The translations under genes were made by a program, and so were the position numbers. The notes under the pieces were generated by a model that ran no database searches, was not told the DNA's origin, and saw only the letters and a list, made by a program, of their open reading frames with translations. Below, piece after piece: positions 3,324 to 51,090 of a stretch of 64,000 nt of DNA (its first letter is position 1; each line of letters starts with the position of its first letter). The DNA comes from Candidatus Aenigmatarchaeota archaeon (GTDB lineage Archaea > Aenigmatarchaeota > Aenigmatarchaeia > CG10238-14 > SpSt-28): contig JAVVFY010000003.1 of the NCBI GenBank assembly GCA_032249395.1, positions 1 to 64,000 on the forward strand, given 5' to 3'.

Positions 3324-3345
3324 ATTTTTATTTGTTTCATGAGTA

Positions 3346-3413
3346 TTTAACATTAACGTTTAACATTAATTGTTAACTTCAAAATATATATTATAGTTAA
3401 ACATTAACGTTTA
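3346..3413. promoter_or_regulatory. Repeated operator-like motif in a divergent promoter region
   Basis: AACATTAACGTTTA at 3349-3362 and 3400-3413, plus near-palindrome TAACATTAATTGTTA at 3361-3375. Confidence 0.55.
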
Positions 3414-10264: not shown

Positions 10265-10723
10265 ATGAAAAAAGCACAAGCAAAGCTTTTTAAGCTTTAC
10301 GCAAAGATATTCCTTTACTTTCTTTTGATAACCATCCTCTTTTCTTTTTCTACTATAGTTTTACACGAGCTTGGCCATTTTATTTTTGGATTGTATGCCG
10401 GTTGTAAACCAGTAAGAATCGTTTTGTTTGATACAAGCATTATGACAACTTATACTGAAATGGAATGTCCTCCAAACGTTAACATGTTCTTATTAGGAAT
10501 TTCTGGTTTTTTTGTTGTTTTACCACTTTCGCTTATTTACTTTTTCATTTCAAAAGGTGGAGAAAAATATCTTGCCTTGATAATGATTGGGTTTAATTTT
10601 GTTATTGCGGTTAATGATTTTGAGGTATATTTGAAGCTTCCATTTTCAGAGATTTTTGCAATATTTGGAAGTTTGCTCATAGTTGTTGGTGAAATCTTAT
10701 TAATCGAGAAAACAATATTCTAA
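10265..10723 (+). CDS. Small integral membrane zinc metallopeptidase, M50/site-2-protease-like
   Basis: HELGH (HExxH) at the end of TM1; about 4 hydrophobic segments; a downstream Asp (AVND) as possible third ligand. Confidence 0.6.
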   Translation: MKKAQAKLFKLYAKIFLYFLLITILFSFSTIVLHELGHFIFGLYAGCKPVRIVLFDTSIMTTYTEMECPPNVNMFLLGISGFFVVLPLSLIYFFISKGGEKYLALIMIGFNFVIAVNDFEVYLKLPFSEIFAIFGSLLIVVGEILLIEKTIF

Positions 10724-11167: not shown

Positions 11168-11169
11168 GC

Positions 11170-12855: not shown

Positions 12856-13617
12856 TTACCATAAACGAAAGAGTTTTTTTATTTTATCCCAGATGCTTTC
12901 TTTTTCCACATAAAATTCTTCGCTAATTTCTGCTGCCAATTTTTTAAAAGACCTCGAAGCTTTTGTTCTTCCATCAAGCAAAACAACTGGAGTCATTTTA
13001 GAAATAGATTCAATGACTTTTTTGTCAAAAGGAATTTGTCCTATAATTCTTGCTTCAGTCAACTCTTCTATTTGTTCTAATTTCATCTCATGTTCTTTTC
13101 CTTCAACTTTATTCAAGACTAAACCTCTTAATGAAACGTTTAAAGCATGAACGATTTTCTTAGCTTTCAATCCAGAAATAATTGCTGCCATGTCAGGATT
13201 AGATACAAGAAGAATTTGATCACTCGCCTTTATGGTTGAAATTACCTCTCTTCCGATTCCAGCGGCTCCGTCAATTAACACAAAATCATAATTATCTTTA
13301 ACCTTGTCGATTTTTTCTTTAAGCTTAGAAGTATCCGGATGCTCCACCATTGCACTTAAGCTAGCTGGAATAATATGAACTCCACTTGGATGAATGTAAA
13401 TAGCTTGAGTTATATCAATCTTATCTTCTAGAACTTCAGTCAAAGTATTCTCTTGAGAAAGCATTCCAAAATGAATTCCCAAATTTGGTGTTGTTATATT
13501 ACCATCCACAGCCAAAACTCTTTTTCCAAAAAATTTTACTAGCGCTGAAGCCAAATTAGAAGTAACAGTAGTTTTTCCAACCCCTCCTTTTGCGCTTATT
13601 ATCCCAATAACTACCAT
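12856..13617 (-). CDS. minD: MinD/ParA-family ATPase
   Basis: Deviant Walker A 'SAKGGVGKTT'; 'DFVLIDGAAG'; 'LVLNK'; C-terminal amphipathic helix 'IWDKIKKLFRLW'. Confidence 0.9.
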   Translation of the reverse strand: MVVIGIISAKGGVGKTTVTSNLASALVKFFGKRVLAVDGNITTPNLGIHFGMLSQENTLTEVLEDKIDITQAIYIHPSGVHIIPASLSAMVEHPDTSKLKEKIDKVKDNYDFVLIDGAAGIGREVISTIKASDQILLVSNPDMAAIISGLKAKKIVHALNVSLRGLVLNKVEGKEHEMKLEQIEELTEARIIGQIPFDKKVIESISKMTPVVLLDGRTKASRSFKKLAAEISEEFYVEKESIWDKIKKLFRLW

Positions 13618-15228
13618 CTAAATTACCTCTTTCATTTTTTTCAAAACTTTCAAAACATCTTGTTTATCTTTAACTTTAATTGGTTCAACAAATTTTGGTT
13701 CGACAGATTCTTTTTTGACTTCTTTATTTTCAATTTCTTCATTTTGTATATCTTTACTATCTTTCAAATTTCCAGAGGCTTTAGAATCTTCAACTTTTGT
13801 TTCTTTTAGATTAATCGTCTCTTCTTTTGTTTCTATCTTCTCATTTTTCGAGTTATTATCCTGAGGTTTGAGTTTTTCAATAACTTCCTCCTTTTTTATA
13901 TCTTTTCCTCTTTTTTCTTCAGTTTTTGCTTCATCTCTATTCTTTTCATTTTCAACTTCCTCTTTTCTTTCAACAAGAGGAATAGCTTCTATTCCTCCGC
14001 TCTCTATAAACTTCTCTATTCTTTTCCACTCTTCTATTAACTGATCTTCAATTTTTCTAAGTTTTTCCAAAGCCTTAGATTTAGCCAAGTTATAATCTCC
14101 TAAGCTTATTTTTCCTAGTTGAAGTTCGGTTTCTAATGATTTTATTAACAACAAAACATCATCCCTCTCCTCTCTAAGTCTCTTTATAGTTTCTGGTATC
14201 TTCGCTTCAGTTATCGGCAGGACTTTATTAATTTCATCTATTTGAGATCTAATTGACATTATATCTGTTCTAAAAGACTCTATGTCTTTTAAAGTAGCAA
14301 CATTTTCTAACCTTGTGTTAATAGTTTCAACATTTCTGGAAAGTTCTCTTACGCTTTCTTCTAAAGAGTCCAACCTTGCTTTAAAAATTGGAAATTCTTC
14401 TAGATTTTTACTCATTTCAACAAATGCCTTCTCAACTTGTGTGGCCAATCGCTCAATATATCTCACAACTTCCTTAATTTCTTTAACCTTAGCTGATATG
14501 TCTTTGGAAATTTTTGTAAGATTTTCTAAACTTCCTGCACTCCTCAAAAATTCATTTATCTTAGACACTTTTTCTCCAACATCCTCAAGCTTTTTGTCAG
14601 TCTTTTCTTTAAATACCTCAAAACTCTCCAAATTTTTCTCAATATCTCTAATTCTCTTTTCAATTTTTTCAGGTCTCAATTCCTCTATATCGCTAGTCAA
14701 CTTTTCAACCTTCATTTCAAGTTCTTTTAGAGCTCCATCTGTCTGAAAAACCATAGAACGAACTTCTCCTAAAGCTTCCGCTAAACTTCTTATTTGCTCA
14801 TTCAAAGTCTTATCTGTATCTCTTAGAGACTCTATAAATGCTTTAATCTTTTCTAGCTCAACGCCAATCTTGCTTTCGGCAGCTTCTTCTTTTGTCTCCT
14901 CAACCTTAACCTCTTCAACTTCTTTAGGAGGATTCATAGGATCAATAAAAACTGGACCTTCTTCTGCAGAACCTTCCTGCTTATATGGATTCTCTTCAAC
15001 TTCTTTCTTTTTATCCTCTTTTTTCTTTTCCTCTTTTATCCCAAGTTTTTTGTTGATTTCTGCCAACTTTTTCTCGTACTTTTCTTTAGTTTCTTTGTAA
15101 ACAGCTTCTGTAATATTGGCTTTTTGAAATTCTTCTTCCAGTTGGGAAATTAATATAAGAATGTCTTCTCTTTCTTTTTCCAATTGTTTTCTCTCTTCTT
15201 CCTTCAACACTTTTTTAAATAAAGGCAC
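13618..15228 (-). CDS. Cytoplasmic long coiled-coil protein with two SHOCT-like motifs and a charged disordered tail
   Basis: Heptad-rich E/K/L sequence. GTG start shares a base with the stop of the giant gene; its stop abuts the minD ATG. Confidence 0.8.
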   Translation of the reverse strand: MPLFKKVLKEEERKQLEKEREDILILISQLEEEFQKANITEAVYKETKEKYEKKLAEINKKLGIKEEKKKEDKKKEVEENPYKQEGSAEEGPVFIDPMNPPKEVEEVKVEETKEEAAESKIGVELEKIKAFIESLRDTDKTLNEQIRSLAEALGEVRSMVFQTDGALKELEMKVEKLTSDIEELRPEKIEKRIRDIEKNLESFEVFKEKTDKKLEDVGEKVSKINEFLRSAGSLENLTKISKDISAKVKEIKEVVRYIERLATQVEKAFVEMSKNLEEFPIFKARLDSLEESVRELSRNVETINTRLENVATLKDIESFRTDIMSIRSQIDEINKVLPITEAKIPETIKRLREERDDVLLLIKSLETELQLGKISLGDYNLAKSKALEKLRKIEDQLIEEWKRIEKFIESGGIEAIPLVERKEEVENEKNRDEAKTEEKRGKDIKKEEVIEKLKPQDNNSKNEKIETKEETINLKETKVEDSKASGNLKDSKDIQNEEIENKEVKKESVEPKFVEPIKVKDKQDVLKVLKKMKEVI

Positions 15229-45200: not shown

Positions 45201-48200
45201 TCTGAAAGTACCATTGGTCTGGAAAGTTACATTAATTGTGTAATTGTAAATTTTAGTTCCGTCAAGTCTTCCGAAGGGTGAACCAAAATTTATTCCTCCG
45301 TCCCAATTGATTTTTCTTGCATCATCTATTGTTGCTGTTGTTGGGAGGGATGACCAAGGATATTGAAATATTAAATCTTGCGGGTGCGTTACTGTAATGT
45401 TATATTTATTTTCTGTAATATTTGCATTTATCAATGGTAAGTTGCCTTTATTCCATGTTTGTAAAGATACATTGAAAATACCGCAACCTACAGTTGATGG
45501 AAAACCTGTTTTATAGCTTGTTGAAGTATCATTGTAAAGTCTTTGTGTTTTGATCCATGGACCTTCTACAACTAAAGGTATAACATCATCAGTAAACAAC
45601 CACATTGTTGGAGATTGAGCAGTGTAAGATCTTCCTATAGTTCTAATAAATATATGTTTTCCTCCTGGAGTAATATGAGGTATATTGCTAACATCTAAAT
45701 TGAAAGTAAGAGATACAAAACCATTATTTGATGGAACTGAAAACAATAAACCTCCTTTAAACCAAACGGTCCATCTTACAACCCATCCTTCATCGGGAGA
45801 ACCATATGGATAGCCTGGTGCTGGTGGGACACCAAGATCAGCTCCTGCTGAGCTTCTCCAAACAAAATTTTTCGGAGTTAAACCCGGTGGGAAATGTATT
45901 TCAACATCGTAGATATCGCTAAAAGTACCAGCTCCACCCCCACTTCCAAAAAGTCTAATTTCTACGCCAACATTTGTAGAATTTGCAGGAATTTTAGTGA
46001 TGTTTATTCCATATACAGTAGAACCTCCGGCTCTACCACTTCTTGCAGGGAAGAAAGCTAATTCCGGATCTGTTGTTATAGAGAAAGTTTGCCCAGTTAC
46101 AGGATCATTCCATACAACTTGAGCTATAAATTCCTCTGGAAATGTATCTCCACTACCAGGATATCTAACTAAAAACCATTGGCATTGTGAAGTTGAAATA
46201 TTGTAATTTAGCCATTTGACTTCTCCTTTTACAGGAGTTACGCTAGCTGCTGGTACTTGAAAATCTGATGCTGATAAAGTACGAGTAAAATCTGTTAGGT
46301 TATAAGTTATATTGTAGTCACCATAGTTACATACCGTAATATTGCGCCAAACCGTACCGCTACCAGCTGATTGAGTTACTGCAGTTGCATAAGAAGGTGT
46401 TACTGTTGTTAAAGTTAGTGGAGAGGGTTTAATTCCTAAAGACTCTACTTGGAATATTTTATCATGAACGATTTCTGGTTTGTTTGGAGATTTTATTCTA
46501 ATTCTTGCTATGTATTTTTTTGAAGCATCCACATCATCAGGAATTTTTACATGCCAAACAGTATCATTAAACGACCAATTACCAATTTGTGATGGTGGCG
46601 TACTCTTTACAAATACGCTTCTGTCAGCACCTTCAAGAATAAACCAATTCTGTTTATTTCCTTGTTCATCTAAAATTTCTAAAGATACATTGGCAATTAA
46701 GTCGTTTGTAGTGTTGTAATTTCCTATAGGCGCTACTACTAGCGCCCAATAACCACCAATAACTTTATCTTTTGCGTGGGTAGATACAACTATATCTCTT
46801 GCAAGATTGATATCATTACAATCTATAACTCTAATGTTCTGCTTATCTGTATCTTTTTGTGGTGCTGTTGGATGTAGAGGATGGAATATACGAAGCGTAT
46901 ATTCGCCGAGCTCTACATCATTAGTTATGTTTAAGAAATATGTTCCCCAAAAACATTTATCATTTACTCCTCCTCCTAATTGACAACCATCAGCATTTCC
47001 TAATTCAGTTCCTGAAATTGGAACATCATTAGCTATAAATCCGAGAGAAGGCATATCAGAGAATACTACATCATTTTTTCTTTTAACTTGTAACTTAAGA
47101 TTGCCTGCTGATGTTGGATCATCATCTGCATTATCAATTAGAGTAAAGTTTATTGTATAATTGTACCCTCTGCATAACGTTAAAGGATCGGCACGAAAAC
47201 TAGTTTGATTAAAGTAAAAATCCCAACCAAATAAGTAAAATCTTAAATCTTCTGCAAGTATAGTCCAGCTTCTGCTTTCCTTAAATGTTTCTCCATTGTT
47301 GTAATGCATTTCTACTGGACCAAGAAGGTAAATTCTTGGAAATAGTGGGGGTAAGTCAAAGGAGTAATTCAACAAAATTCTTTCTCCCTTTCTAATATTC
47401 GGTAAATTCCAAACTATTAAAATCTCTTCTGGATTCTTGATTATCACCCCATCACTTTTAATATTCAAAAATTCAGTAGGAACGCGCTCAATTACAGTTA
47501 AGTTGTAGGCATCTATCTTTGCTATTATATTCAAAGAAACAGTAGTTCTTGCTTCAACCCTTATTTTCGTAGGAAATTCATCTAAAAATGGCTCTTGCCT
47601 CAATATATCAAAGGGATAAAATTCTTTAACTTCGAAGTTTGTGGAGTATTCATTGCTTACGTTCAAACCTTCTTCAACACGTACATATACAGAGTAATTG
47701 CCTACTTCACTTACAGTATAATTAGCTACATAAGTCCCGTCAAATCTATTTAAAATTTCTGTAGGATTTATTATCGTTTTTTTACCAGAAGGATTAGTTA
47801 CTTCTATAAAAACTATAGCATTTGTAACAGCCTTACCTTCGGCATTTAAAGCGCCAACAACTATTCTAACAGTTTCCCCAGGAGAGAAAGTCCCTGCACC
47901 AACATATACAGTTCTTTTAAAGCCATTATTAGAAATTTCCAGTGCCTTTAAAGTATTTACATTTACTAAACCGACAGCAAAGCTAATTTCTTCTTCAACC
48001 ACTTCCTCTCCAGGATTCGGACTTACATAACTCAATTTAACTTTAAGCTTGTACAAACCTGGCCTAAATTCTCTTTCTGCATCTAACTCAACAACAAACT
48101 TTCCAGGACCAACTTGAGTATAATTAACTTCAGTTATATTTCCATCTGGATCTACAACAAAAGCTTGCAAAGTAGCATTTGGAAATATTTCGCCAGTATC

Positions 48201-49532
48201 TTCATAAATAGCTGAAATCTCAAACCTTATTTTTTCTCCAAGCTCATAATTGAACTTCTCTTGCTTAACTTTTGGTTTTACTTTTATGTGCTTCAAAACA
48301 TTGAAATCAAGAGTTTTGCTTGCATTTCCAAATTCACTTTCAGCAAAAATTTCTGCTGAATATTTACCATAAGCTTTTGGCAAAATTTCAAAAGTGAAAT
48401 TAAAGCTACCATTAACAAATTGCTCATCCTCAAAAACGACTTTACCTTTAACATCTTTAACTATAAGCTTAACTCTAGAATTAACCAAATTTCCATTGTA
48501 GTTAACATTTCCGTAAATTGAAACGACTTTCCAATCGCCTTTTCCTTTTGTGATATTTTTAACTGAATAAAATGCTTCGACTGATGGAACAAAACTTATT
48601 TTAGGTTGCGAATAGTTAGATACAACAAAATAAAAGCTTGTTTCATTTTTCAAGCCTAATGCTTCTATTATCAAATAATAAATTCCATCTTCGCTAAAGT
48701 TAGCAATTAGAGAAGAATTAAAGCTACCGTTAACAATTTCTATTTCTTTTGAAAGCAAGAGAGAAGAATTAAATTGCAAGCTTAAGTTTGCGGTAGCATT
48801 AACTTTTTCTCCATCAACAACAAGTTCTCCAAAAATGTTAATTGTTTCGTTTGAAGTGTAATTTGATTTATCAGTTAAAATTGTCAAGTATGTCTGATTA
48901 GTTTGAGTAATATTTTCACTTACGTTTTCAGAAGGAATTGTAGTTGTTGTTACAGAAGTTGTAGTAGTTATCTCTTCTTTTCTCTCAATTGTTATTTCAG
49001 CTTCACTTGGATTCAAATAATCTTTTTCACTTCCTTTGAAAACTGCTTTTACTTTTGATGCATTGATAAGATTAAAAGAAAATGTTGAAATTCCAGAATC
49101 ATCTGTAAAATTGCTACCGACAAAATTCCCATCAACATAAAATTCTATTTCTTTATTTGGAACAAAAGAACCATTATCGAGCAAAAGCTTAGCAGCTATT
49201 AAACCATTCTCAACTTTCAAATCTATTGAAGTGTTTGCAAAAACTTCAACTTTAATGCTTTCTTCAACAACATTAGAAACTCCAATAAATCTTCCCGTAA
49301 TATTACTCCAGTTTGTTGCTAAAAGAATTGCAGAAGCTAGAGCAATGAAAAGTAAAGAAGTAATTATTTGGGTTTGTCCCTTCAAACTTTTTTTCGATTT
49401 TAAATTTAGTAATGCAAAAAAGAAAAGAATTGCAAAAGAAATTGCAAATGGTAAGAAAATTAAGAAAGGTAAAGTTAAGTATGGCAAAAATTCTTCAATA
49501 AGACTTTGACTTTTTAGTTTAAACTTACTCAT
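15228..49532 (-). CDS. Giant (11,434 aa) surface glycoprotein: Ig-like repeat stalk, single TM, C-terminal HerA/FtsK-superfamily (DUF87-like) ATPase
   Basis: Uninterrupted 34.3-kb ORF. N-terminal hydrophobic segments; ~20 GGWG repeat units; TM 'WVTYFILMIALPIGYVAL'; Walker A AGGTGSGKT; 'VFDPTG'; Walker B LLLVYDEVH; arginine-finger region REFRKWG; sensor VSQ. Confidence 0.93.
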   Translation of the reverse strand: MSKFKLKSQSLIEEFLPYLTLPFLIFLPFAISFAILFFFALLNLKSKKSLKGQTQIITSLLFIALASAILLATNWSNITGRFIGVSNVVEESIKVEVFANTSIDLKVENGLIAAKLLLDNGSFVPNKEIEFYVDGNFVGSNFTDDSGISTFSFNLINASKVKAVFKGSEKDYLNPSEAEITIERKEEITTTTSVTTTTIPSENVSENITQTNQTYLTILTDKSNYTSNETINIFGELVVDGEKVNATANLSLQFNSSLLLSKEIEIVNGSFNSSLIANFSEDGIYYLIIEALGLKNETSFYFVVSNYSQPKISFVPSVEAFYSVKNITKGKGDWKVVSIYGNVNYNGNLVNSRVKLIVKDVKGKVVFEDEQFVNGSFNFTFEILPKAYGKYSAEIFAESEFGNASKTLDFNVLKHIKVKPKVKQEKFNYELGEKIRFEISAIYEDTGEIFPNATLQAFVVDPDGNITEVNYTQVGPGKFVVELDAEREFRPGLYKLKVKLSYVSPNPGEEVVEEEISFAVGLVNVNTLKALEISNNGFKRTVYVGAGTFSPGETVRIVVGALNAEGKAVTNAIVFIEVTNPSGKKTIINPTEILNRFDGTYVANYTVSEVGNYSVYVRVEEGLNVSNEYSTNFEVKEFYPFDILRQEPFLDEFPTKIRVEARTTVSLNIIAKIDAYNLTVIERVPTEFLNIKSDGVIIKNPEEILIVWNLPNIRKGERILLNYSFDLPPLFPRIYLLGPVEMHYNNGETFKESRSWTILAEDLRFYLFGWDFYFNQTSFRADPLTLCRGYNYTINFTLIDNADDDPTSAGNLKLQVKRKNDVVFSDMPSLGFIANDVPISGTELGNADGCQLGGGVNDKCFWGTYFLNITNDVELGEYTLRIFHPLHPTAPQKDTDKQNIRVIDCNDINLARDIVVSTHAKDKVIGGYWALVVAPIGNYNTTNDLIANVSLEILDEQGNKQNWFILEGADRSVFVKSTPPSQIGNWSFNDTVWHVKIPDDVDASKKYIARIRIKSPNKPEIVHDKIFQVESLGIKPSPLTLTTVTPSYATAVTQSAGSGTVWRNITVCNYGDYNITYNLTDFTRTLSASDFQVPAASVTPVKGEVKWLNYNISTSQCQWFLVRYPGSGDTFPEEFIAQVVWNDPVTGQTFSITTDPELAFFPARSGRAGGSTVYGINITKIPANSTNVGVEIRLFGSGGGAGTFSDIYDVEIHFPPGLTPKNFVWRSSAGADLGVPPAPGYPYGSPDEGWVVRWTVWFKGGLLFSVPSNNGFVSLTFNLDVSNIPHITPGGKHIFIRTIGRSYTAQSPTMWLFTDDVIPLVVEGPWIKTQRLYNDTSTSYKTGFPSTVGCGIFNVSLQTWNKGNLPLINANITENKYNITVTHPQDLIFQYPWSSLPTTATIDDARKINWDGGINFGSPFGRLDGTKIYNYTINVTFQTNGTFRFQAIPTNGTFTFLDEPYDIFIACGASLTVSQPSFSPNNPFLNQPFNASSTITNFGPGNASNVIAVINYTGPGVLEIRNATGDLSDVNYLGTIELNGIREAKWNITANTAGTYTICIRANSTENSTEVMSCNDVLVGLPPATIEMENPLVISKETGTSTGSWGFNFTFNVSVRVTNSENDVQVCSYFSKTGSEPWRLVGCDVYPAPGAGNTGDWINFTFEFDADCSDIGSPVFVKFNATNNAGTTNSTSTTFTITKDTIFFEDIIGNGTETRRGKTTTLLALRVRDKNNTLITNLPVTFYVTLDGNIYDSGTTNSTNESAYANYYFQAKCSPKYQVGYQKWKAVVSGHACYFDNSTENFVNLSVLVTGDIILNFQKPDGTTNFTQEQKVSFLGATTDDCGDALTTNVRFFANKSTQSFECLPVYQVGANAYTCDWQTDILTPMGWYNTTMYASKDYHYPNSTVNALYPGLFYLLPIKKLENPQAYPLSEGWGYPNWNFSVKASSGDSENVLNVSLYMGKTWPPIFKCEAPTCINQTPNECSNCINSTKYWYRNFTANDIGNWYYQFKMDGAETTQVLYVTVEKDDVNISYVEGNNSFAKYSPAQSAKFVVRVYDLDAQTYNLNPAATVTFRIKYNGLYDKIIGSNITNSSGYAEFYFTPDCSFSSGDQYWYAEIASDEPYYKPYTTSYFNISIDTSGCKPQIKIGEIKQPKEAFQYKNFTLGVTVGTLGPSGTVANDVYVNLTLPTGWQADSTTKYVGNVSVGELKTIWFNIYPTTYSSNQIIIFVNSSNAENDSLTINVFTYKFMSETFSQEELPYLLNSNEAKEFNFVCEAGSYRIANLSISTYSSSLQDGKIRIEVYNGTYWLDVSHSLYFTSPSSLFIPILEKQIQPSETGYCKIRITNIGDNPVNISGLKLSAYYNETVLIQDVDTNVNGISVKGLEKTDRYLNISVILSNSFNQQISGTLYLNITDAYGNVVYSSSSPLLLNQKSSYIANFSNIDTQAWSEGNYNIIATFVYNSNVSTRVELLTIKDVTVNAKGSNWMCNSTSEPFIVEIYHPFNEEIDYNVTLSVPTGWTFTPSYQLVKAITPGKYYAQFTLTSSNSTSELANIQAIVNYNHITQKTKTATFQIQESNSIAILEVIRETPPFVSPDKVFESRLVVHNKGCAKASGATIIETLESGWTPANPSIKTNVYGSSVQLLSSSVDLINNLVIWNLGDIDVNEYAVLTYQVKAPNIYSKTGSFKFNVSWDGKSFEEENPFTVSTASYNQESHLSFDIEAIQQDEYPWPEVRSSQLNRAYNYSLKVTNIGDTTASGWSVYLSIPEECDVLNVYNGGTFNPSTRKISWSLPSLSVYSSSYLNFTLNCSLEGKKVLVAEGILDTRSESYFVNDTSISCYGNSCSLTYPFVFTKPINARYEKMKEIAFLINYSFGDENLTIAEAKVSIADDLLNKRIFWQNYSHSLALSKVWSNYSIDSNDSTNFVNSLRNIFIDTYADSSTNPYSNVSIEKIAYVWSTGKLFNETQNLFVKSKIYKYSPLLTNATLYIDDQVRNVGGWGENYKFGVYVRDRFGRDVIVYAWHRMGASEYSLIGSQVCYNCLQWTQLNFSFKYDGSAIGAWSFKFNATNADGSSEILGYAYTIEKDDISVFGIQPILNATVNRSMPFEFTMFVFDIDNQTYPYYLQLGQVDEGKARIFISKYGSNETFDISPSLSANSTGYVVRTMQNTSDSWCKVSDYYLGQNYWKGGVFGASTYKDNVTPIIPFWLIGDLSNSYMLYPNGSRNYTRGQVVEFDGIIKDDCGLVKTDSASFGVEYIISHGSTVYTIVAPLTYTTWTIPQDAPLGWYNVTMIAFAEGSEAGKYWNGTYFKENAFFVASNIKLDNPQVSPYPKGSWQINPFNFSVYVTSEDGEPVYTYLWLKRENSNWQLENSSVCVNCNNYQFFTQKSFYCSDIGSWYAKFNATSPTTFKNETQVIAFNITKTPISIDYSSGNNSVVNRSDSVIGNTVNLTVRIKNLVFGNYTTEISTDEVYGYVTKDDVNWEQEIVYSNETHYFINFNPSCSYSVGLRKWKVNVSSACYESNSSQEFYVIIVGSLANSIISPTGDRNYTAGEKIYLIGEVYDDCGNPISDASIRFKLTSGSNEYYCPSSGYITNTSNTYVCEFDTTGKSGGWYNVSMESSKQYYLNASSFKQNAFFLIKPVELINPKVEYPNDGSWGEIHNFSVIVNHYASVNVCLLESTSSDGPWSVTDCRFIENPSYTLVNFTRDYTCSDYQQAAIRYFMFNASEPDIPQTYSNTSAISHTLRKDDISLIYVLGNESYVNRNGNNSTKFMIYVLDRDKNSPAFSQIGVQYYPRVWFNIFNGTAFITDGSNSTNSSGYVEYNFNPDCRYDAGRQNWVAYVQADACYKDASSEAYNVTIIGDLVPFVVYPNGITYYRENQLYINISVFVQDECKLRNISGATVTIEPISVGFGDVYNCDNVQDYGNGTYSCTFNATEAKEGWYNVRVNASNVIYYNDASFTNVSVFRIIHVWQPPVLEDATVFPEDDWGWGENYTFKVNVSDANADDVNVSLWLSKDGVNWNYISSQMCYNCGSKRELTFYYSGFTCSDIGTYYFKFNATDPRNTTDMAPISFNLDKDDVDFVYDSNSLGNNSWVNRSEGVTLKIKVYDRDNKQFVDRYVSGKIWVTYDGVNYGSAWEASGDNGYLSAVFTPDCSYNVGTQYWKAGIVNDACYKNANSTLTLTVNIKGWLNNTISQPNGEAYLSNQNVTISGLVNDECNNPINDANVFYKVKHGAFEDYCFASYVSGYYTCTWNISNNPPGWYSVFMYSSRDLYNNASKVKQNAFFHEVPPVLVAPSVTPTEAPWGSTFTFKVNVTDEDDIVNVSLWIRKLPDGAFSLAASTICNNCTNVTVTLQKSYTSGSDIGSYEWFINASDNYGGVAQTSIQTFNVTKRRTYWVYSQGNNSWVSRVGTNTTILEARLYDAFTNLPLDKGSDTTYINVSSDSGWIRYGTTTSSGFATLNFDPDCRYSVGVKNWRAAFDGDSYYFGNASQNYTVVIYGSLTSSILQPNGNVIAEGDPILIVGNVSDDCSSGVSGTSTIFTIEPIHSTCSPVNDYGNGTYSCSFPSSGLIGWYDISMNVSKQYYNDTYSYKSNAFQVRRKPAITSYSINRDSGGWGSYFLVSALVLDADPSDPVNISLWKSYDGVNWVYVDSKSSSDCTGTCYFEFNPSFNCSEYLINSTILLKLNVSDSYGLRNETSPITVTLTKDTVSFYSISVPSEVLRYGNNYGKFVVRVYDVDKNAWLDLSQENVKGYFWFTRDTGIYDEGHLVYANASGYLEYDFNPDCSYNVGYQSWKVGIASNQCYFDANSSDSSFIIKGQLNINLNLPTYGSTFNVGDKINISWNVYSDCYLNSSVRDSGNISEVSNVLTLSSGSYSSSCSPINEDNGNYNCTWDSTSKAEGYWNITIQASKTYYSTNTTTFANWFWLENRPPIVSNLNVTPNAAGWGSLFNYSAYVEDPENDTVTCSLYVKTNDNWAHKGSKTISTPGVCYIEVNDFTCEDQGIASFYFVVNDTFNRVNTSDSEISIGPAITKNSISLTLVSGDGAKVNRSDSNIGNTVSFVIRALDLTRNSLPLANTNLTFYVTYDQTNFKPYYTQTNSSGYASLDFNPDCQFSTGKQAWFAKVENDACYFETYTNTTPTQNYTVEVYGDLVLDVISPKGEKYLRGDYPDGQNVNLTARITSDCEIEGGIYANANFSVSQGSIVNYCNPVEYLGNGYYTCSLNTSGFRAKGWNVTFNASKSYYNSNSTLEIFEIWKKGFWIETKPILTTDFYTISYDSLGRVGDGGWGELWVFRVNITDEDDDLLEVKLWINRTDNGEWYQLPSNMTAYDRGINKTITFMLRLPSPTVLGSPSAVGPHAFMFNVSEYQDIFGNQTKDFPQNVYQTNNGTLIYKKDDVIIEHVVGNSTSVYRPGNNIQTLTVRVYDVDKGEYAIGSPGAAIFVTTDFYNYITISGTSSISPGGYINTSLTQFNPDCSFAIGPQKWKAGVLDSNPFYKPTNSSEFTITIVTDTLNVNYISPKDGKIYIKSPTPADYLILVANVTDECGGVRGATTNFYIQRGDTIRECRSIGSVVDFNNGTYACNITNSTLNSNYELIYGYWNVSVNASKQYYNDSLTTQQTNAFYLASRPTLTTYSYYVTAGNFTNGWGDLWQFKVDVEDEDRTGELGSLVNVSLWINRTGDWEYIGSMTCIPPCEGSDALVFTTSFSCSDIGTHTFKFNATDNLFVYDNRLKSESSKQTFTVDKEWADVYIQSGDGSSVYRPGYETAILQGYILDWSKGGTYATDLGIKGYLYITKDRNNFGDPIEIYTGSDGLFTYYFDPDCNYTTGRQIWFIELNDTCYRYSRTSNASVYVYGQLYSNLNYPPQGWVNGTGVMIPIVMDVKSDCSGYISEETPSVPNSTQGITNPILIQNPVNSLEACQPITDFNNGTYYCEYNTTRKLPGLYSIILQSAKDYFYSNQTTYSNWFEIVNLPPRYSNPQVTPSAGGWGDKYNFSIDVLDTDGDDVNCSLFVSTDNGNVWRYVGSQIISGGSGTCRFENIQPYTCNDTFNDVGSDNWFRFNLTDVIGQTNTSTNYGPIIDKDVISISLVSGNNTNITRAFGYLPLRVYVTDFNRSRPVGSDRTAQIEIGFNVTFDGSNFLFVGSNRTYSSLPGNVTFNFDPNCSFNVGLQNWKAFYKSTIIPSGECYHFASSENYTIGIVGQLLNFITSPNTTKDKFIRDEENITWRGYVTTDCSAKEGLLSSANVSFYATHTVTGNTFYCDEPYNSVNNEGDGYYNCLFVNNASKLPRSYTLTMISKDVPWYNSNTTTIGNLCAASGCAFYIVTKPSLSSPAYSYSQDGGWGESWQFRVTLTDEDSDFNNVSLWIRNITIADPACPEASKWPNYYLKASRLTQPGLIIFDFPSPNAFSSACAGTTFEAFFNTTDGINSANTSLFTFTVQPDDVNITIVFGNNTILNRSLAPSEDNITFSILVYDTDRNVLLPVGTTGPIRFYVTTNPYDPNSFVVDGSYLTIGAYGYTSHTFPSLPRCTYNLGTLRWRVEFGTANRAYKPINSTYVYGDDFYITLVSYPLNATLLQPTSKTFRRGIDSITYVGIVKDDCGYVSNASVSFIAEPSQNSPSSNCPPNEVVDYGNGTYSCTVYPSSYWSMQWYNLSMYASKENYVDSPESKIVNSFAIVTNPEVTLLPPTTKCRSGDCLITDNNFGWGEIWNFSAIVRDVDQGAYSNERLNISLWIDFGNGFELVNSTVCQAPTCFSEKLFSFIQTFDCSKIGVRNYKINVSDDWGYTNESSDTIEIRPDSVEVYYVSAPTRIDREIGNTQGTFVMRIKDLDRDEYLPEGKLAVFYFTKDGSTFNTVFTVTTNSSGYISYVLDPDCSYSVGIQKWDAGIIDSCYIAENYTQRAGGPFAPPTFNITGQLKNNLELPINGSIFNVTQPITIRFNTTSDCSSEGLIPNASVSIELISPYGEAETCNPIMNEYNGWYNCTWNSTGKKEGYWSIRLNSTLMPLYNFNSTTYQNRFWLENVNATAENFSVYVWNNSINSWQKVGFDDYFGWSNKFNFTADIYDQEGDTVECRVFISKDNGITWNYVGSSIINGIPGIPTKGTCSVVYHGFDCSNIGNNNWFKFEIRDGEQSNYYNTTPINAPKLRESFVSISLIAGNGSYVNRSSGVNQIVRFEVNVFDLENSSYAPNANVSFWVTRDGSNYQFDLSNKTEANGNASYYFNPDCNYSTGLQYWKAGVTDSCYIDINTTDFTTYIIGDILPKIVLPNGEEYLRGSNITIRTLLTDECNVALRGATVNFTMRSEKTLNNYTCDDVVEEGSGYYSCTFNTSSPIILPARWYNITAFANKTFYNANSTTKYRAFWIETSPILSNPVAIPSGDGGWGETWLFKVNFTDEDLDTNWLRLYVDRGRTTDPSQVAINQTVSGENIEVYFNMSGIFNEDDFNRNRTVKFKFNVTDNPPAGLPEDIYDTGWLYLTLNPDNVTIIPINPVDVVINRSAMKGSPIEYRAQMIDSDTGAPLPGGRTAKIYFTKDGSTFIDSGTLYIASGGYVSRSVTLDCSYSVGPQYWIAGTFNTTTQYAWEIKNSSVVRFDIVTEPLKVNITAPINNYPWNAPVRGKDDIKIYAEVKDDCGYVSGAALTFYIYDPNYGNYICSDVVDYGNGTYSCTIPAYVTTTWTTGWHNISVEVSKMYYNSSTDFQENAFYLATEPIITPEGFPSITGYSISGDGSWGEIWKFEAWIYDQDNDDVNVSLYVNLSSGWVLRNSTIIKAETPQLVTFYDTFSCDDIGVRAYKFVATDVWGYSDQKNSTIDIKKDDVSIEYVAGAGEQVRREGSNFVTIKVLVRDIDRNVLVGAGRNGSLYVTTRSLGSSGDTSSYIRYYVNQTDSSSILTFYFDPNCSIGVGMQNWKAGIENDVCYKDTVPEYGFTVNVTGQLKVGIASPTQGSQIIVGDAANVTSFVYSDCSDEGLISGAIVTHEAISPDNKAETITPVFDLGNGYYNSSWDTSFHIGGLYSFRINASKPNYYPNSTIFANWFYLNNTPPQAENLSVTPTIGGWGSIFSYSVDVYDHRQDNVTCRLYVKTTGGWVYKGSYNLTGGRGKCVVNVTDFTCSDISSTTYFKFEIDDGTRENVFNTSETIGPTITKDPTISEYYIGNNSFVNRSGDQTTLLGVRIKDTIKNSYISSGFSGRIFVTLDGNNYDYGTSNVTDDNGFLLVYFNPSADYSVGVQKWKGGIYDDACYQDNNSTEQYLTILGDLNIQLLYPSVYTEYLKPYDNITIRVKVTNDVGLDVSDANVSINLIHESGTIFNCSPVVSLGNGEYLCSINTSLIRARYYNISVSAQKQFYNNGYLLTENIIYVKTMPILTGEQVLSKSGTDTGGWGETWTFKVNVTDEDLDPLSLKLWIKRATESTWILANSSSYIDNPDLNGAINKTITLTFKNPSVLQTKQGEWYYYFEAEDIRNYVGNTSIHSFFVEKDDVNISLVAGNGTSVWRNGTDIAKLVVYVYDLDREEPANDANVTFFVTLNGSIFDSGTIVYSNGTGYATFEFDPGCNPLYKTGIQYWKAAIVSDDYYKPASSSNFTITIKSQINLRVDYPDGDAFLRGTTAPFYVSVYDECEYVNGADVLLYGVWGTNQFSCTPVYDMSNGTYNCTFDTSGKPFGWYSIKMMARKIYYSEYPSYTTITKPNAFFVASKPTITSFTIDHYYGGWGESYNFNVRITDTDSSPNNVTLWKSYDNVTWIYVDSKVVTPSYSDYPVSFSKRFDCSDYLTNSTVFFKVTTVDVNGFNDTSASLNITFEKDDVTINLASDSSTTVRRIGDNLAYLRAIVYDSDRGIYPSDANLTIWITRDGRNYDYFLNCTSSNGNCTVYYNPDCSSKEGIQYWFAQSGDACYKQVNSTNRTLTVIGQLNVSIINPAANSILQRGVVNVFNASVYDECLNLRPNATARWYNSTWSLLASGQNTTWLTPTSYKLGFERIYVNVSETNFDSNFNSTPVYIYGWSRVNFVSPSNGTTVESGSLINLVCRVLDFNTSQPISNYSVKFFKNDVLIGSSLSDSDGYAQIGWNTFGEPAGNYNVSCRIETNSTLFYTPAIPQSSIIITLKRPLIIDEIIAPPFIYRNDSFVPNKANITVHVRDAQIGDASGANVSFYMFNNYIGSCLTNSTGYCSLINLDFPDNFTPSLVTIYINATRDVNEPSETVNTSIQVKGILYATIILPGNNSYFSKAQSIPVEVNVISENGETLDYLNETGLTVEWWNETSKLVEGISTIIPQSFVAQQSTGRHSLMAVAKKSYYDDGKANVTIYINSLADVIWISPLNDTVLPYPEEFNVTCMVKDTYAGGIADYNVSLYYKIEPNVDFIYLDTLKTNSSGYASYQFKPYEKGNYTFLCNITDDNDKYYSAYRKTSGAMFWVKDIYPPVIFNINVTPVYGLEANLNSTQVFATISDNYDVNSVWLNVSLPNGSFEIVPMYNVSPKVKIGDYIFVNYSTTYLPRMDGNHSLYIYAIDMPPESNVNSTLAAEIVVFGKVYGDAKTNINDVLATGITQKKGFNFTVIANFTNLGPATAYSVNLTHSESPIGSLKYNESIKQCGTLKPGETCYWNYTIIVPNATSPGIYTYNLIATWRNPDLSINSTTARITITVTSNPVISIEPNYIEVSAPHDATTYIGDVKVVSEGNDDVYEAKIISLTDYLYSRCPECRLTVYPTEFGLLKAGEVRTASVSIQVPRGQDPGIYLATLRANSTNAGYSDALLNITVPANYTWIVSPTSLGTRILPPGTKGNLTFINVTNIGNVRLVLTFSPSGNASTFFKAYLNEPLATLPFELAKGSTRTIVVNYSIPVDVFEGIYDYGIYLRNASGFPADPSERLIYGIFNITDVPPTIENVSIVPMNFEVGYENVSISANITDNVGVDKAWIEVEFPNGTKVNQTMSNISSYYYTTLVSRQSGIHKVRICANDTVLPSRPYGLVGCTDYYQVIGSTTTQLNVRFENEPLIADNVTIVSPQVISTKLIVENVGGSRAFNISVNTSSSDNVTVAPKNYFFSLLLKSSNISATSNISISPYTQPGTYYIALLANWTNLDSSKNSSTRIVEVNVTPNPLVVPRISKLEYAIVAGDSFTSSFDIWSIGNVNATNINITCYSGIPCTDFNLTLAPSQIDSMSVGEIRTINISLGVPNNYLTGNYNGSIRISWGTNKSSILPINVWVPMNISWEQSPTSIIKILVDETNGTFDTINFVNKGNYEVPLNISLEGNITQILNVSDSFIVVPYAGSKNLTIFYNIPSLPSNRYYEGVLRARIVDWLRGNSTITETSTNISVFVHSFHVNITYPTYENPMLNVNPATLIEAKVDVKYNGLPEPSASFNVTLFNDTFVISPSFISQFNASSGIWSIWISAPNLALGRAYSLGISVSTNKDIPITKYDEEKDSIIYNDTIAPIINISMPSRTPIYEIIPILINVTEAGRLKSVNATIIRPDQYVEILNLTFVGRIYDVYSYNTTYISTNLTGTFILSISACDISNNCNFVNKTFVVYPTAWFAGYMLNYESLAKEPISARFILYDLDGSVRFNFTNNETGYYNKTVDVKTYNLLLRLENGSFNPSIYLENVSISTSLFNPIIVGNIPKQRVTTSALKTLYVDTILNYTNATIEFRFDDCVGQSCGLPIYSASNLGIYKYQGNWTPIVSTSINSNWRRITNLNYDNSDNSINLTTFTVRAKVSDLRGVYILAEFICGNGECESTYGENSAICPLDCPSIPGAGAGAGGAGGVGTGAGAGGGGFGGGAGAGAGVGGGIGGFGLPINISLPNISVPNITLPNVTRAPVEFKATVIDLTVAPEEEKLFSIDVTNHLTQDFDVSITIEGPASSIVTVQTPLVRVPAQSISTATFRVFASKSIAPGIYIGEISLRAGNITHKVPLTIKVNPIAEPLLDVKTKVLTKAVAPGKDLMFEVTLINMGQTPSVEDITVTYTVRTLNEPYKIITQTQETLAVVNTLTYVRKITIPENTPQDSYILFVNASYWYGKKYAMAADSFEVSELPAPVLMLKAVFSNWVTYFILMIALPIGYVALRWYAAYRMAKLAKRRYVAPIDFKELPQPGPNSIEVGKIAETDVKAYLDLSQLTMHTIAAGGTGSGKTISAMVVAEELLKRKIPVIVFDPTGQWTGFIKPNRLKQMLDLYPKFGLKPTDARSFRTNIVVVEDPNMEINIKKYMIPGEITVFVMNRLKPEQLDAFVRRSIQAIFDMRPPETKEMKLLLVYDEVHRLLPKYGGKGGYTALERGVREFRKWGIGIFMVSQVLLDFKGAVRANIANEIQLRTRYEGDINRVKSKYGQEYASKITKLTIGTGLFQNPEYNHGKPWFISFRPILHSPFGLTDEEINQYVSLNKKIEEFEAKIAELKSKGVDTYDMEIELNIAKDKLKTGAFKMVETYLESLEKRLSKFGGK
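22530..40590 (-). repeat. 18 tandem diverged coding repeats of ~1.0 kb (~335 aa); two further units at ~43200-44780
   Basis: G[GS]WG-type anchors near 40535, 39530, 38560, 37560, 36615, 35680, 34690, 33662, 32582, 31560, 30497, 29408, 28366, 27375, 26333, 25355, 24385 and 23397. Most are followed by the motifs F.PDC.Y.VG.Q.W and D.GNG.Y.C. Confidence 0.88.
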
Positions 49533-50118
49533 AAGCTACTCTCACCTTTATCTCACTTTCTCCAAGTTTCGTTGATAAATCGCTTTTAACAGAAAACTCT
49601 AACTCGCAATAAGAGTTTACTTCGATTACATTGCAAACTTTTTCTAAGGCGTCTGTCGAAAATCCTTTCGGCAAATCGACAGATACTCGAACGTTTGTGG
49701 CATTAGCACTTCCTTCATTGCTAACAACAACTCTTAACAAGAAACTCTCTCCTCTTGTTATTCTGCTTTTATCGGTGCTTAATCTCAAAGAGATTTTTGG
49801 TTTTGCGATAATTTCTGTTGTTTGAGAAATTTGCGTAGCAGATGTCGAAACGTTTTCACTTGCTCCATTTTCTTCTGTGCTATTAGATTCATTCATTTGA
49901 GTAAGTTCAGAAGAAGTTGTATTCGACGAGTCGACAGATTGTTGTGAAGTTGAGTTTTCAGAAACCAAATTTGTCGAAGCTGACTGTTCACTCGAATTTT
50001 CATTTGTTGTCAAATTTAGTGAGCTGTTCATAGCTTCTTGAGCAATCGACAAGTAGAAAAAGAAAGAAAAGGCTAAGAAAATTGCCAATAAAGCTAGAAA
50101 TTGGGCTTTTCCCTTCAT
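49525..50118 (-). CDS. Exported protein: signal, S/T/N/Q-rich linker, single DUF11/CARDB-like Ig domain
   Basis: MKGKAQ followed by a hydrophobic stretch; low-complexity linker; 'VVVSNEGSANATNVRVSVDLPKG'; 8-bp overlap with the start of the giant gene. Confidence 0.8.
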   Translation of the reverse strand: MKGKAQFLALLAIFLAFSFFFYLSIAQEAMNSSLNLTTNENSSEQSASTNLVSENSTSQQSVDSSNTTSSELTQMNESNSTEENGASENVSTSATQISQTTEIIAKPKISLRLSTDKSRITRGESFLLRVVVSNEGSANATNVRVSVDLPKGFSTDALEKVCNVIEVNSYCELEFSVKSDLSTKLGESEIKVRVAYE

Positions 50119-51090
50119 TTTTAACTCCTATTGCTTAACACTAATGATAAGCAGAGTTGTTTGTCGACCCATATATAATTTTTTTAACAACCTGTCGAGA
50201 GTGAAAATCGACAGTTCGACACCTCGACAAAAAAGAAGAATAGCTTTTATTTTTAGAATAAAAGAAAGAATATATGCTTAAAGAGATTTTTGGTTTGAAA
50301 AAAGAAAACAAAGATGAAAAAATTGATGAGATGATTAAGTTAATTGATTCTCAGCTCTCTATGATTTCTATGGAAATTGAGAAGTTGAAGAATTTGGGTT
50401 CTAAAATTGAGAATATTGAGAAAAAAATAGCAATTTTAGAAGAGCTTATTAAAGAACAAGGAGTCGAAATAAAGCCAAAACCGGTTAGTGAGAAAACAAA
50501 AGAAGCAATAAAGACTTTGTTGAAGAGATATGGAAGCTTAAATGCCTGGCAGGTTGCCAAATTATTAAACATGTCTAGAACAAGATGCGCAGAATATCTT
50601 AAGCAAATGGAAGAAGAGGGGATTTTAGTCTCTCAATGGAAGAGTCGAAAAAAGTACTATTCGATTCGACAGTAAAATTTTTCGATGAAGTTTTTATTCG
50701 ACAGATCGACTTTATCCTCTCTATAGATTGTTCCCCTATGAAGTTTGTTTATTTTCAAGAATTTCGACAGTTTAACAAGCTTTATTTTTTGAGTAGTCTG
50801 AAGAAAGTAAGAGGAATTCTGAGTTGTCGAAAATCCGACAGTTATAATAGCTAGTTAGTTTTATTATTTTTTCTGTCGAAGTAGTTGTCGAGATGCTGTT
50901 GGGAGAGAATTGAACAAAAAATGCATTATTGAAGGTGCATTCATCTCAATCTGTCGACAAAAATCGACTGTTTTTCTGAAATTCTCTACTTACTAGAGAT
51001 AAAAATCTGAAGAGAGAAAAAATTTTGAGAGTTGAAGTATTTATCTTTAGCATTTTTAATTTTATTTCTAACTATCTAATCAACTCGACA
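49654..51090. repeat. Dispersed cluster of TGTCGA/TCGACA motifs
   Basis: About 19 exact hexamers plus about 5 GTCGA/TCGAC variants, counted by eye. Includes an 8-bp-period triplet at 50208-50229 and palindrome TGTCGACA at 50952. Confidence 0.85.
50274..50675 (+). CDS. Coiled-coil + C-terminal winged-helix DNA-binding protein, divergent from the giant-gene operon
   Basis: N-terminal heptads; 'LLKRYGSLNAWQVAKLLNMSRTRCAEYLKQMEEEGIL...RKKYY'. Confidence 0.85.
   Translation: MLKEIFGLKKENKDEKIDEMIKLIDSQLSMISMEIEKLKNLGSKIENIEKKIAILEELIKEQGVEIKPKPVSEKTKEAIKTLLKRYGSLNAWQVAKLLNMSRTRCAEYLKQMEEEGILVSQWKSRKKYYSIRQ

Follow-up and report, generated by a model that had tools for sequence, protein, structure and literature searches.

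The 64,000-nucleotide window analysed here, positions 1-64000 of contig JAVVFY010000003.1 (C3) in the 752,806-bp, 25-contig and 89.5% complete assembly GCA_032249395.1 of a Candidatus Aenigmatarchaeota archaeon, encodes a giant surface protein of 11,434 amino acids (aa) that ends in a predicted cytoplasmic ATPase and is, by its architecture, an Aenigmatarchaeota member of the SPEARE type. The design of such giants is already known, and what appears to be new here is the set of partners with which the giant travels. Conserved gene order indicates that the core of the system comprises the giant, a cytoplasmic coiled-coil protein encoded directly downstream of its ATPase, and a second, shorter surface fibre, and that MinD appears to be a recurrent, movable accessory and not a core part. 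The initial annotation of this DNA had joined MinD to the giant and the coiled-coil protein in one positioned host-contact machine and had said that it knew of no described system with such a composition; on this it was wrong, since the design of the giant has been published as SPEARE (PMC6642349, PMC10266531). The three core components are the following:

15228..49532, minus strand: giant SPEARE-type surface protein, 11,434 aa, 1.27 MDa, isoelectric point 4.8, with 486 N-x-S/T sequons and 174 cysteines
13618..15228, minus strand: cytoplasmic coiled-coil partner, 536 aa, encoded immediately behind the giant; residues 18-63 and 353-398 each hold a copy of a 45-aa motif
4383..10235, minus strand: second surface protein, 1,950 aa, with three NEW3, two MG2 and one Big_3_3 domain by Pfam, a C-terminal transmembrane helix, and the motif in its last 45 cytoplasmic residues (4386-4520)

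The neighbourhoods of the giant's relatives carry the argument for the coiled-coil partner. Over 6 kb past the ATPase in 40 of the best 66 relatives, picked by the room left on their contigs before their content was seen, a coiled-coil gene lies directly downstream of the ATPase in 40/40 (phmmer E 1e-27 to 1e-129), and it is likewise found downstream in 6/6 of the best loci from a second phylum (42 species representatives, one titled 'Candidatus Nanohaloarchaea'). A coiled-coil profile built from 34 sequences (the window's own and those from 33 of the 40 relatives) was run on the same 301 sampled genomes of the class that were searched for the ATPase, and 124 of them match. When these are set against the 125 genomes with a strong ATPase match, 117 genomes hold both genes, 8 the ATPase only, 7 the coiled-coil gene only and 169 neither; no probability is attached to this co-occurrence because the relatives are not independent, and at least one of the discordant genomes (G170) reflects a contig end. 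Shorter fusion paralogs of about 2,200-3,000 aa likewise adjoin a coiled-coil match, as in the same-order relative G158 (C1, 20968-22107 with 22157-22993). The coiled-coil gene thus behaves, as far as gene order can tell, as a strict partner of the ATPase-fused giant, and on this point the expectation of the initial annotation, that it would be conserved beside such fusions, was borne out. The second surface protein follows closely: a homolog lies within 6 kb behind the coiled-coil gene in 34/40 relatives, and within 20 kb in 10/12 of an extended sample (relatives with long contigs, belonging to seven families, read over 20 kb downstream). Of the six relatives without it in the first 6 kb, two carry a homolog further away, and the genomes of one family (f2) have none within 20 kb.

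The 536-aa protein lacks hydrophobic segments (its highest Kyte-Doolittle mean over 19 residues is 0.99), matches coiled-coil-type Pfam families below threshold only, and finds in the ESM Atlas only Aenigmatarchaeota clusters without a family name; its family is kept over residues about 15-400, and the charged tail is variable. When a profile of its residues 17-62 was searched against the 149 window frames of at least 60 aa, it matched the protein's own second copy at 354-397 (independent E-value, i-E, 1.9e-5) and also the C-terminal 45 residues of the 1,950-aa protein, past the transmembrane helix (i-E 2.6e-5), and the reverse motif profile returned the same two matches. No named family in Pfam gave anything over its cut-off for the motif at E <= 10. 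SHOCT (PF09851), to which there is a likeness by eye, matched neither the whole 536-aa protein nor, at E <= 10, any of the motif stretches; GvpG came up for the tail of the 1,950-aa protein at 26-27 bits, below the cut-off of 30.6. In sequence, nothing but this 45-aa motif connects the two surface proteins on their cytoplasmic side, and it may mediate binding.

At the cytoplasmic end of the giant, three features lie close together:

16335..16442, minus strand: single C-terminal transmembrane segment, residues 11031-11066, by hydropathy; a long helix at residues 12-54 of the 415-residue model
15435..16313, minus strand: cytoplasmic HerA/VirB4-clade P-loop ATPase domain (predicted), residues about 11074-11366; Pfam DUF87/HerA 47.5 bits, cut-off 23.2
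15231..15440, minus strand: C-terminal three-helix tail, residues 11365-11434; model helices 346-371, 377-391 and 395-413, kept in relatives

The transmembrane segment is followed by KLAKRRY and the P-loop domain, with Walker A GGTGSGKT at 11120 and Walker B LLLVYDE at 11245, and since an ATPase needs ATP, the C-terminal part of the giant is taken to be cytoplasmic. The last 415 residues served both as the query and as the modelled chain, and were aligned with 34 relatives remaining from 40 fetched after six near-duplicates had been dropped by eye. Mean column identity of the ATPase part in the 35 sequences is 72%, Walker A and Walker B are invariant, and G101, G104, G106, K107, D230, E231, R250, R253 and R256 (415-residue numbering) are among the positions that do not vary. 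The AlphaFold2 model (predicted local distance difference test, pLDDT, 89.4) begins with one long helix, continues into a RecA-like core and ends in three helices (346-413). Its top Foldseek match is Sulfolobus HerA (4d2i, E 3.5e-13), and VIA-align scores 4d2i at Z 25.3 (root-mean-square deviation 3.3 over 259 residues), HerA 9x1m at Z 24.4, 8xaw at Z 24.1, Thermoanaerobacter VirB4 (4ag6) at Z 23.2, TrwB at Z 19.3, FtsK at Z 17.6 and EssC/EccC at Z about 16.8. The model places the cytoplasmic domain in the HerA/VirB4 clade of the FtsK-HerA ring translocases; the HerA and VirB4 labels found in the literature are compatible, as their Z scores lie within about 2 of each other. Narrower assignments failed among the curated NCBIfam equivalogs (CedD 43.3 against a cut-off of 600, CedB 19.4 against 700, HerA NF040937 39.1 against 800, HerA NF040819 27.4 against 970), PADLOC returned generic HerA-type matches only (HerA PDLC04105, 48.8 bits), and Pfam gave weak TrwB/T4SS-DNA_transf matches. 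No second copy of the ATPase part was found in the giant's own genome, where contig C7 holds a weak HerA-like match.

The remainder of the chain is dominated by repeated beta-sandwich domains:

49296..49502, minus strand: N-terminal hydrophobic segments, residues 11-47 and 52-79, around a KGQTQ motif, by hydropathy; the pattern [KR]..GQ[AST][QE] plus hydrophobic residues recurs in relatives
42792..44762, minus strand: two copies of a 326-aa three-domain module, residues 1591-2247, by iterated self profile search
22614..40595, minus strand: 18 contiguous copies of the 326-aa module, residues 2980-8973, three beta-sandwich domains each, E 1e-64 to 5e-111 per copy
17160..17309, minus strand: glycine-rich linker, residues 10742-10791, 26 Gly in 50, from the sequence

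Hydropathy finds three hydrophobic segments only (11-47, 52-79 and 11031-11066), which leaves an ectodomain of ~11,000 residues with ~100 beta-sandwich domains, heavily N-glycosylatable to judge by its sequons. At about 4 nm per domain, such a chain would make a fibre some hundred nanometres long. Above their Pfam cut-offs the giant matches MG2, Filamin, YtkA, Big_7 and NEW3, and the glycine-rich linker and NEW3 domains sit before the membrane helix. Pfam recognised no enzymatic families outside the C-end and no laminin-G (E <= 0.01, the chain searched in three pieces), WD40 or protease-like region. An iterated profile search of the giant against itself resolved 20 full copies of the 326-residue module, with partial copies to residue 9327. 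The AlphaFold2 model made from the 20 aligned copies is all-beta (pLDDT 94.3), and its Foldseek matches are the macroglobulin-domain arrays of complement C5 and alpha-2-macroglobulin (A2M), titin, and extender regions of giant bacterial adhesins. The gene is one open frame of 34,305 bp, or 4.6% of the assembly, far beyond chance in DNA of 31-37% G+C; an assembly artefact as its source was ruled out, because the module copies are just 27-36% identical to the reference copy and the frames of relatives are similar in length.

Nine giant-type and four small-protein N-ends of relatives share the pattern [KR]..GQ[AST][QE] followed by ~20 hydrophobic residues. This pattern, a lead only, may resemble archaeal prepilin-type (class III) signals; no signal model in Pfam matched nine N-ends at E <= 10, and the window's own genome holds a Peptidase_A24 gene (G000:C1:17580-17924) and four T2SSE-type ATPases. 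A few residues past the N-terminal hydrophobic segment, the giant, the 1,950-aa protein and several relatives also have I-T-G-x-F-[IV]-G, which could be a shared processing or sorting site.

Outside the window, the last 415 residues (P0006) match 130/301 sampled genomes of the class at E <= 1e-10, 125 of them strongly and five weakly (~1e-11 to 1e-13), and the ATPase match is found in 49/95 high-quality genomes. Relatives' open frames ending in the same ATPase run from 9,015 to 14,526 aa, most frames being cut by contig ends. Among 1.84 billion representative proteins there are 372 matches at E <= 1e-30, and in the 150 matches listed, whose proteins have 356-7,665 aa, the ATPase mostly lies at the C-end or close to it; in species-representative genomes a relative is encoded in 466/490 candidate stretches. 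Within the second phylum, 39/42 species representatives match at 1e-5 and 27/42 at E <= 1e-90, with 44-61% identity; none of their open frames equals a published SPEARE protein in length. Comparison with the same-genus relative G182 gives 86% identity for the ATPase part, 69% for a 297-aa secreted protein encoded near the left edge of the window, 60% for the second fibre, 57% for the coiled-coil protein, and 35.6% (8,135 columns) and 45.3% (7,659 columns) for the ectodomain. Against G158, whose giant has 11,428 aa, the last 620 residues alone align at E <= 1e-10. A fast-evolving exterior on a strongly conserved interior fits a part that would meet the surface of another organism.

The giant gene belongs to a compact row of four minus-strand genes, 49525-50118 (197 aa), 15228-49532 (11,434 aa), 13618-15228 (536 aa, GTG start) and 12856-13617 (253 aa), flanked by a divergent gene:

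50274..50675, plus strand: divergent 133-aa winged helix-turn-helix (wHTH) gene, HTH_24/TrmB-like; Pfam HTH_24 26.7 bits, cut-off 21.9
50119..50273, no strand assigned: 155-bp divergent intergenic region, candidate promoter/operator, with TGTCGA/TCGACA inverted repeats I1 and I3
49525..50118, minus strand: 197-aa protein, membrane-anchored or secreted, with one NEW3/DUF11-type beta-sandwich domain; Pfam NPCBM_assoc 32.7 bits, cut-off 24.4; N-terminal hydrophobic segment
12856..13617, minus strand: 253-aa archaeal MinD with an amphipathic C-tail; TIGR01969 211.4 bits, cut-off 201.75; P-loop SAKGGVGKTT (deviant Walker A KGGxGK[ST])

The near absence of spacing reported in the initial annotation is confirmed in the sequence: the 197-aa gene and the giant overlap by 8 bp (ATGAGTAA), the stop of the giant and the GTG start of the coiled-coil gene share 1 bp (TAGTG, the TAG/GTG overlap), and the coiled-coil gene is followed by MinD at a gap of 0 bp (TAG then ATG). 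With a GGTG/GAGGT-like (Shine-Dalgarno-like) stretch 7-11 nt upstream of every start, the four genes appear to be translationally coupled. The divergence from a wHTH gene was also read correctly, the 50274-50675 gene matching HTH_24, and a wHTH homolog is divergent from the giant gene in 12/14 relatives whose 5' end was fetched and whose frame start could be placed (in G070 the start is misplaced and that locus is uninformative). In the same upstream sample a homolog of the 197-aa protein lies directly upstream of the giant in 7/14 relatives, once with an N-terminal wHTH fusion. Several relatives have a small NEW3 protein, or the giant itself, that begins with a wHTH ahead of the membrane segment. 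Within the intergenic region, positions 50157-50234 hold several TGTCGA/TCGACA half-sites arranged as inverted repeats, candidate sites for the neighbouring wHTH protein. As to transcription, three hot-spring metatranscriptome runs hold parts of the window as assembled contigs that are 90-99% alike, and in one run (X1) one contig spans 13049-13754, across the MinD/coiled-coil junction, and another 14904-15582, across the coiled-coil/giant junction. The co-expression supposed at the outset thus gained contigs that bridge both junctions and are weakly compatible with co-transcription, which contigs alone do not show, as they give neither strand nor transcript ends and DNA may be present in an RNA library.

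MinD shares this coupling in the window and is differently placed in most relatives. It lies directly behind the coiled-coil gene in 2/40 relatives (G077 and G198, each with a 4-bp overlap), and an ortholog of the window's MinD is missing from G182 (best 40% identity), although giant, coiled-coil protein and second fibre are all present there. A MinD paralog is present within 20 kb downstream in 10/12 relatives, the exceptions being G088, with one upstream, and G040, and in 5/14 relatives one stands near the wHTH gene, within 4 kb upstream; the chance expectation from 4-8 MinD paralogs per 0.6-1.0 Mb is ~0.1-0.2 per 20 kb, the genomes holding five paralogs here and 4 to 8 in relatives. All 20/20 locus-linked MinDs have basic-hydrophobic amphipathic C-tails, and a C-terminal stretch of this MinD type binds membranes. 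In a tree of the 20, which is descriptive only as unlinked paralogs were left out, the three coiled-coil-adjacent MinDs group in one clade (99/100), and a second clade (95/91) takes in 11 others. Since MinD stands behind the coiled-coil gene in just 2/40 relatives and its ortholog is lacking in G182, it is not counted as core; it appears to be a recurrent and movable accessory, the copy at 12856-13617 looks like a lineage-specific extra, and MinD together with coiled-coil proteins seems to form a recurrent module neighbouring the core. The expectation that both genes would be conserved beside the giant therefore held for the coiled-coil gene and failed for MinD in its position directly behind it, paralogs within 20 kb notwithstanding. 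The locus-linked MinDs of relatives G245 and G158 (L167, L169) are 315-319 aa long, with an extra N-terminal stretch resembling a winged-helix domain. In G077 a 220-aa small GTPase-like gene (L168:2227-2889, minus strand; NOG1, MMR_HSR1, Arf and Ras matches) lies directly behind the coiled-coil-adjacent MinD and has no counterpart in the window.

Between the second fibre and the left edge, and between the second fibre and the coiled-coil gene, the window holds further accessory genes:

10265..10723, plus strand: 152-aa multi-pass membrane protein with weak DUF3267 likeness; Pfam 23.1 bits, below the cut-off of 27.1
3439..4332, plus strand: 297-aa secreted protein, left-edge accessory
3063..3353, minus strand: 96-aa HTH-like protein, left-edge accessory
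2075..2992, minus strand: 305-aa anchored beta-rich protein, left-edge accessory
1540..2088, minus strand: 182-aa anchored beta-rich protein, left-edge accessory
842..1543, minus strand: 233-aa anchored beta-rich protein, left-edge accessory
2..709, minus strand: first 236 aa of a ~790-aa protein with wHTH, transmembrane and CarboxypepD_reg/Ig parts, cut by the contig start

That accessory genes extend to the left edge, as the initial annotation had proposed, is upheld by synteny: homologs of the left-edge genes lie behind the second fibre in relatives, in the same order or as an inverted block, and the extended loci also hold a MinD paralog and long coiled-coil proteins of 640-1,122 aa. Of the accessories, the 297-aa protein is conserved best; two relatives have it twice, and in the ESM Atlas it falls in a 539-member cluster without a family name, mostly from Aenigmatarchaeota; neither Pfam nor NCBIfam gave family names for the left-edge proteins. 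The end of the 6.8-kb contig C17 encodes the C-terminal 419 residues of the ~790-aa protein together with a 264-aa MinD and proteins of 976 aa and 194 aa, so the locus extends past the window. A homolog of the 152-aa protein is found within 6 kb downstream in 10/40 relatives. Between the coiled-coil gene and the second fibre stand a HEPN gene (11211-11720) and a nucleotidyltransferase-with-wHTH gene (11717-12319), both on the plus strand within 11211-12319 and with a 4-bp overlap, as well as MinD and two small membrane-protein genes, and none of these is at that place in G182; the HEPN/nucleotidyltransferase pair looks like an inserted pair of the toxin-antitoxin type. Elsewhere the window carries archaeal housekeeping genes by Pfam (tRNA-intron endonuclease, FEN1-type XPG nuclease, thymidylate kinase) and, at 53689-54576 on the minus strand, a free-standing LAGLIDADG-type endonuclease gene with a sigma-70 region-4-like HTH, which adjoins a DUF763 gene and is unrelated to the giant locus.

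The explanation that we find moderately probable is a SPEARE-type giant acting with its coiled-coil partner and second fibre in ring-based contact and translocation, with MinD as an accessory. The ATPase would form a ring, as all its solved relatives do, and this would gather several fibres together at a single site in the membrane; ring and second fibre would be connected by the coiled-coil protein through the shared 45-residue motif, and the fast-evolving fibres would contact another cell, the host. The ring might then either move a polymer across the membrane of the symbiont or work the fibres mechanically, while membrane-binding MinD paralogs and long coiled-coil proteins may place or space the assembly. 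For the nearest solved relatives of the ATPase the substrate is DNA. The putative function of the whole is contact between cells together with translocation of a polymer. Several points weigh against so complete a picture. Host, attachment, ring, substrate and protein-protein binding are all inferred, none being shown by the results here, and the SPEARE assignment is based on published descriptions of the architecture. In the locus nothing was recognised that would form a channel or handle DNA, such as a nuclease or a relaxase, and the VirB4 N-terminal domain PF03135 was found neither in the giant nor in the 89.5%-complete genome. The hydrophobic segments at the N-end mean that both ends of the giant may sit in the membrane, unlike a simple outward fibre. 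The giant system is also absent from 4/6 sampled genomes of the same genus, and with its presence in 130/301 genomes of the class this marks it as either dispensable or often unassembled. A bolder version, a polar 'contact organelle' of six 1.27-MDa fibres on a HerA-type ring, clamped by the motif to the shorter fibre, placed by MinD and importing host DNA or another polymer, we consider quite unlikely; if true, it would amount to an adhesin and import motor in one chain, with no bacterial counterpart, present in Aenigmatarchaeota and neighbouring DPANN phyla and feeding a symbiont that cannot make its own building blocks.

The reading from which this work started, that the four coupled genes form one machine in which MinD, by way of a coiled-coil adaptor, positions the adhesin-motor as a core component, has a precedent in MinD4 of Haloferax volcanii, which positions archaella and chemosensory arrays. 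It could draw on the 0-bp gap here and the 4-bp overlaps in G077 and G198, on the single clade formed by the three coiled-coil-adjacent MinDs, on the recurrence of amphipathic-tailed paralogs in the extended locus, and on the long coiled-coil proteins that adjoin the locus MinDs. We nevertheless think it unlikely, as only two of the 40 relatives share the arrangement, G182 has the three other components without an ortholog of this MinD, and the commoner locus-linked MinDs occupy other places and fall in other clades, although a tree lacking the unlinked paralogs does not prove clade linkage. That the giant and the 1,950-aa protein instead build a structural coat or sheath, an envelope or matrix in which the ATPase serves their own export, insertion, tensioning or turnover and the coiled-coil protein is an internal anchor, would suit the high N-glycosylation potential of the 486 sequons, the possible anchoring of the giant at both ends and the many further anchored beta-rich proteins of the locus; archaeal S-layer-type proteins, moreover, often carry NEW3/CARDB-like domains. 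About half of the sampled genomes, 46/95 of the high-quality ones among them, yielded no giant, which would be odd for an essential coat, its ectodomain diverges much faster than its neighbours, as expected of a part meeting another organism, and no coat protein with a HerA-type motor was found in the literature, so that a coat is in our judgement very unlikely. Little more can be said for the type IV secretion-like 'straw' proposed in PMC10266531, in which the Ig chain would grip the host and effectors would be injected into it by the VirB4-like ATPase. That proposal draws partly on two cultured nanohaloarchaea in which the next gene downstream encodes a second VirB4-type ATPase, one with PF03135. 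The Z score of Thermoanaerobacter VirB4, within about 2 of that of HerA, and the weak TrwB/T4SS-DNA_transf matches speak for it here, but the gene downstream of the ATPase is a coiled-coil gene in all 40 relatives, and the lack of a PF03135 ATPase removes the main local support. No VirB6-, VirB8- or pilin-type families were recognised in the window, either, and strings of beta-sandwich domains are not known as conduits; we regard this proposal as improbable for the present locus. A defence or sensing device, with a HerA-type effector ATPase (as in Sir2-HerA and DUF4297-HerA) behind a huge extracellular decoy or sensor, scarcely seems credible: the anti-phage HerA matches (PDLC04105, 8xaw) are no better than those to repair HerA, the locus has no Sir2, DUF4297 or nuclease partner, and the known Sir2-HerA and DUF4297-HerA anti-phage systems are soluble.

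If the giant with its coiled-coil partner and second fibre does act in contact and translocation, the consequences reach beyond this genome, as SPEARE-type giants are the main candidates for the way in which DPANN archaea hold and draw on their hosts. Throughout the class and in a second phylum, the gene of the giant does not stand alone but is accompanied always by the coiled-coil gene, usually by the second fibre and often by MinD-type ATPases. Four to five proteins and a short motif thereby become a defined set open to experiment, and should the cytoplasmic ring move DNA or protein, it would represent a new coupling of adhesion and transport within one polypeptide.

Among known systems, the outer part of the giant recalls the bacterial giant repeat adhesins (Marinomonas ice-binding protein 4p99 and 5irb, large adhesion protein 6xi3), which project a tip on tandem strings of beta-sandwich domains and whose folds the module matches. 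Those adhesins leave the cell by type I secretion and stay anchored in the outer membrane, and none is known to carry a cytoplasmic motor in the same chain. The best fold match of the motor is the HerA of HerA-NurA resection (4d2i and 9x1m, Z 25.3 and 24.4 over about 260 residues), a DUF87 ring translocase; that HerA is soluble and works with the nuclease NurA, and the window has no NurA family. With the archaeal MinD positioning ATPases (TIGR01969) the likeness is that the window's MinD passes the model and has the amphipathic C-tail, and the difference is its place in the locus, conserved in 2/40 relatives. The nearest functional analogy of the ATPase is offered by CedB and CedD of crenarchaeal Ced DNA import in Sulfolobales, transmembrane-tethered HerA/VirB4-clade ATPases that PMC11868833 describes as needed for importing DNA from a contacted cell. 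The giant's cytoplasmic part finds its best NCBIfam match in CedD, over the P-loop region only and at 43.3 bits against 600, which falls short of family membership; CedB and CedD differ in having their transmembrane helix N-terminal to a VirB4-like N-domain and in lacking a giant ectodomain, and no CedA-type channel protein was recognised in the window.

The closest counterpart of the whole protein is found in the SPEARE proteins. The available parts of PMC6642349, from 2019, describe them in Nanohaloarchaeota as proteins of up to 8,553 aa, mostly extracytoplasmic, with one transmembrane helix towards the C-end and an intracellular part that is their most conserved region; one was seen by proteomics in Ca. 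Nanohaloarchaeum antarcticus, and 'similar sequences' were noted in Woesearchaeota, Aenigmarchaeota, Micrarchaeota and Altiarchaeales. The published examples are those of Ca. Nanohaloarchaeum antarcticus, Ca. Nanopetramus SG9 and SVXNc_0300. All examples of the 2019 paper are reported to have one or more laminin-G domains, a feature that does not recur in the available parts of the 2023 re-description, which lists a signal peptide, about 75 Ig-like domains, a transmembrane segment, a VirB4/TraG-like ATPase and a coiled-coil tip (PMC10266531). Archaeal proteins of more than 10,000 aa have been noted earlier (bioRxiv 10.1101/2023.11.21.568195, from the part available), and the DPANN coiled-coil loci tied to type IV pilus genes, as presented in the available part of PMC11291902, represent a different locus. 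No literature was found on coiled-coil, second-fibre, wHTH or MinD partners of the giant, the supplements of PMC6642349 lying outside the search; correspondingly, the second fibre, the divergent wHTH gene and the MinD paralogs with which the window's giant travels were not found in the available parts of the published descriptions, and the gene behind it encodes a coiled-coil protein and not a VirB4-type ATPase. With 11,434 aa (and relatives' frames reaching 14,526) the window's giant is also larger than the 5,998-9,409 aa published, the bulk of it consists of the 20 copies of the 326-aa module, and it lacks laminin-G by Pfam, which is treated here as descriptive and not as defining. What the two share is the architecture itself: thousands of extracytoplasmic Ig-like residues, one transmembrane segment near the C-end, a gene that takes up several per cent of a ~1-Mb genome, a VirB4/TraG/HerA-like ATPase in the most conserved, cytoplasmic part, and a helical tip behind that ATPase.

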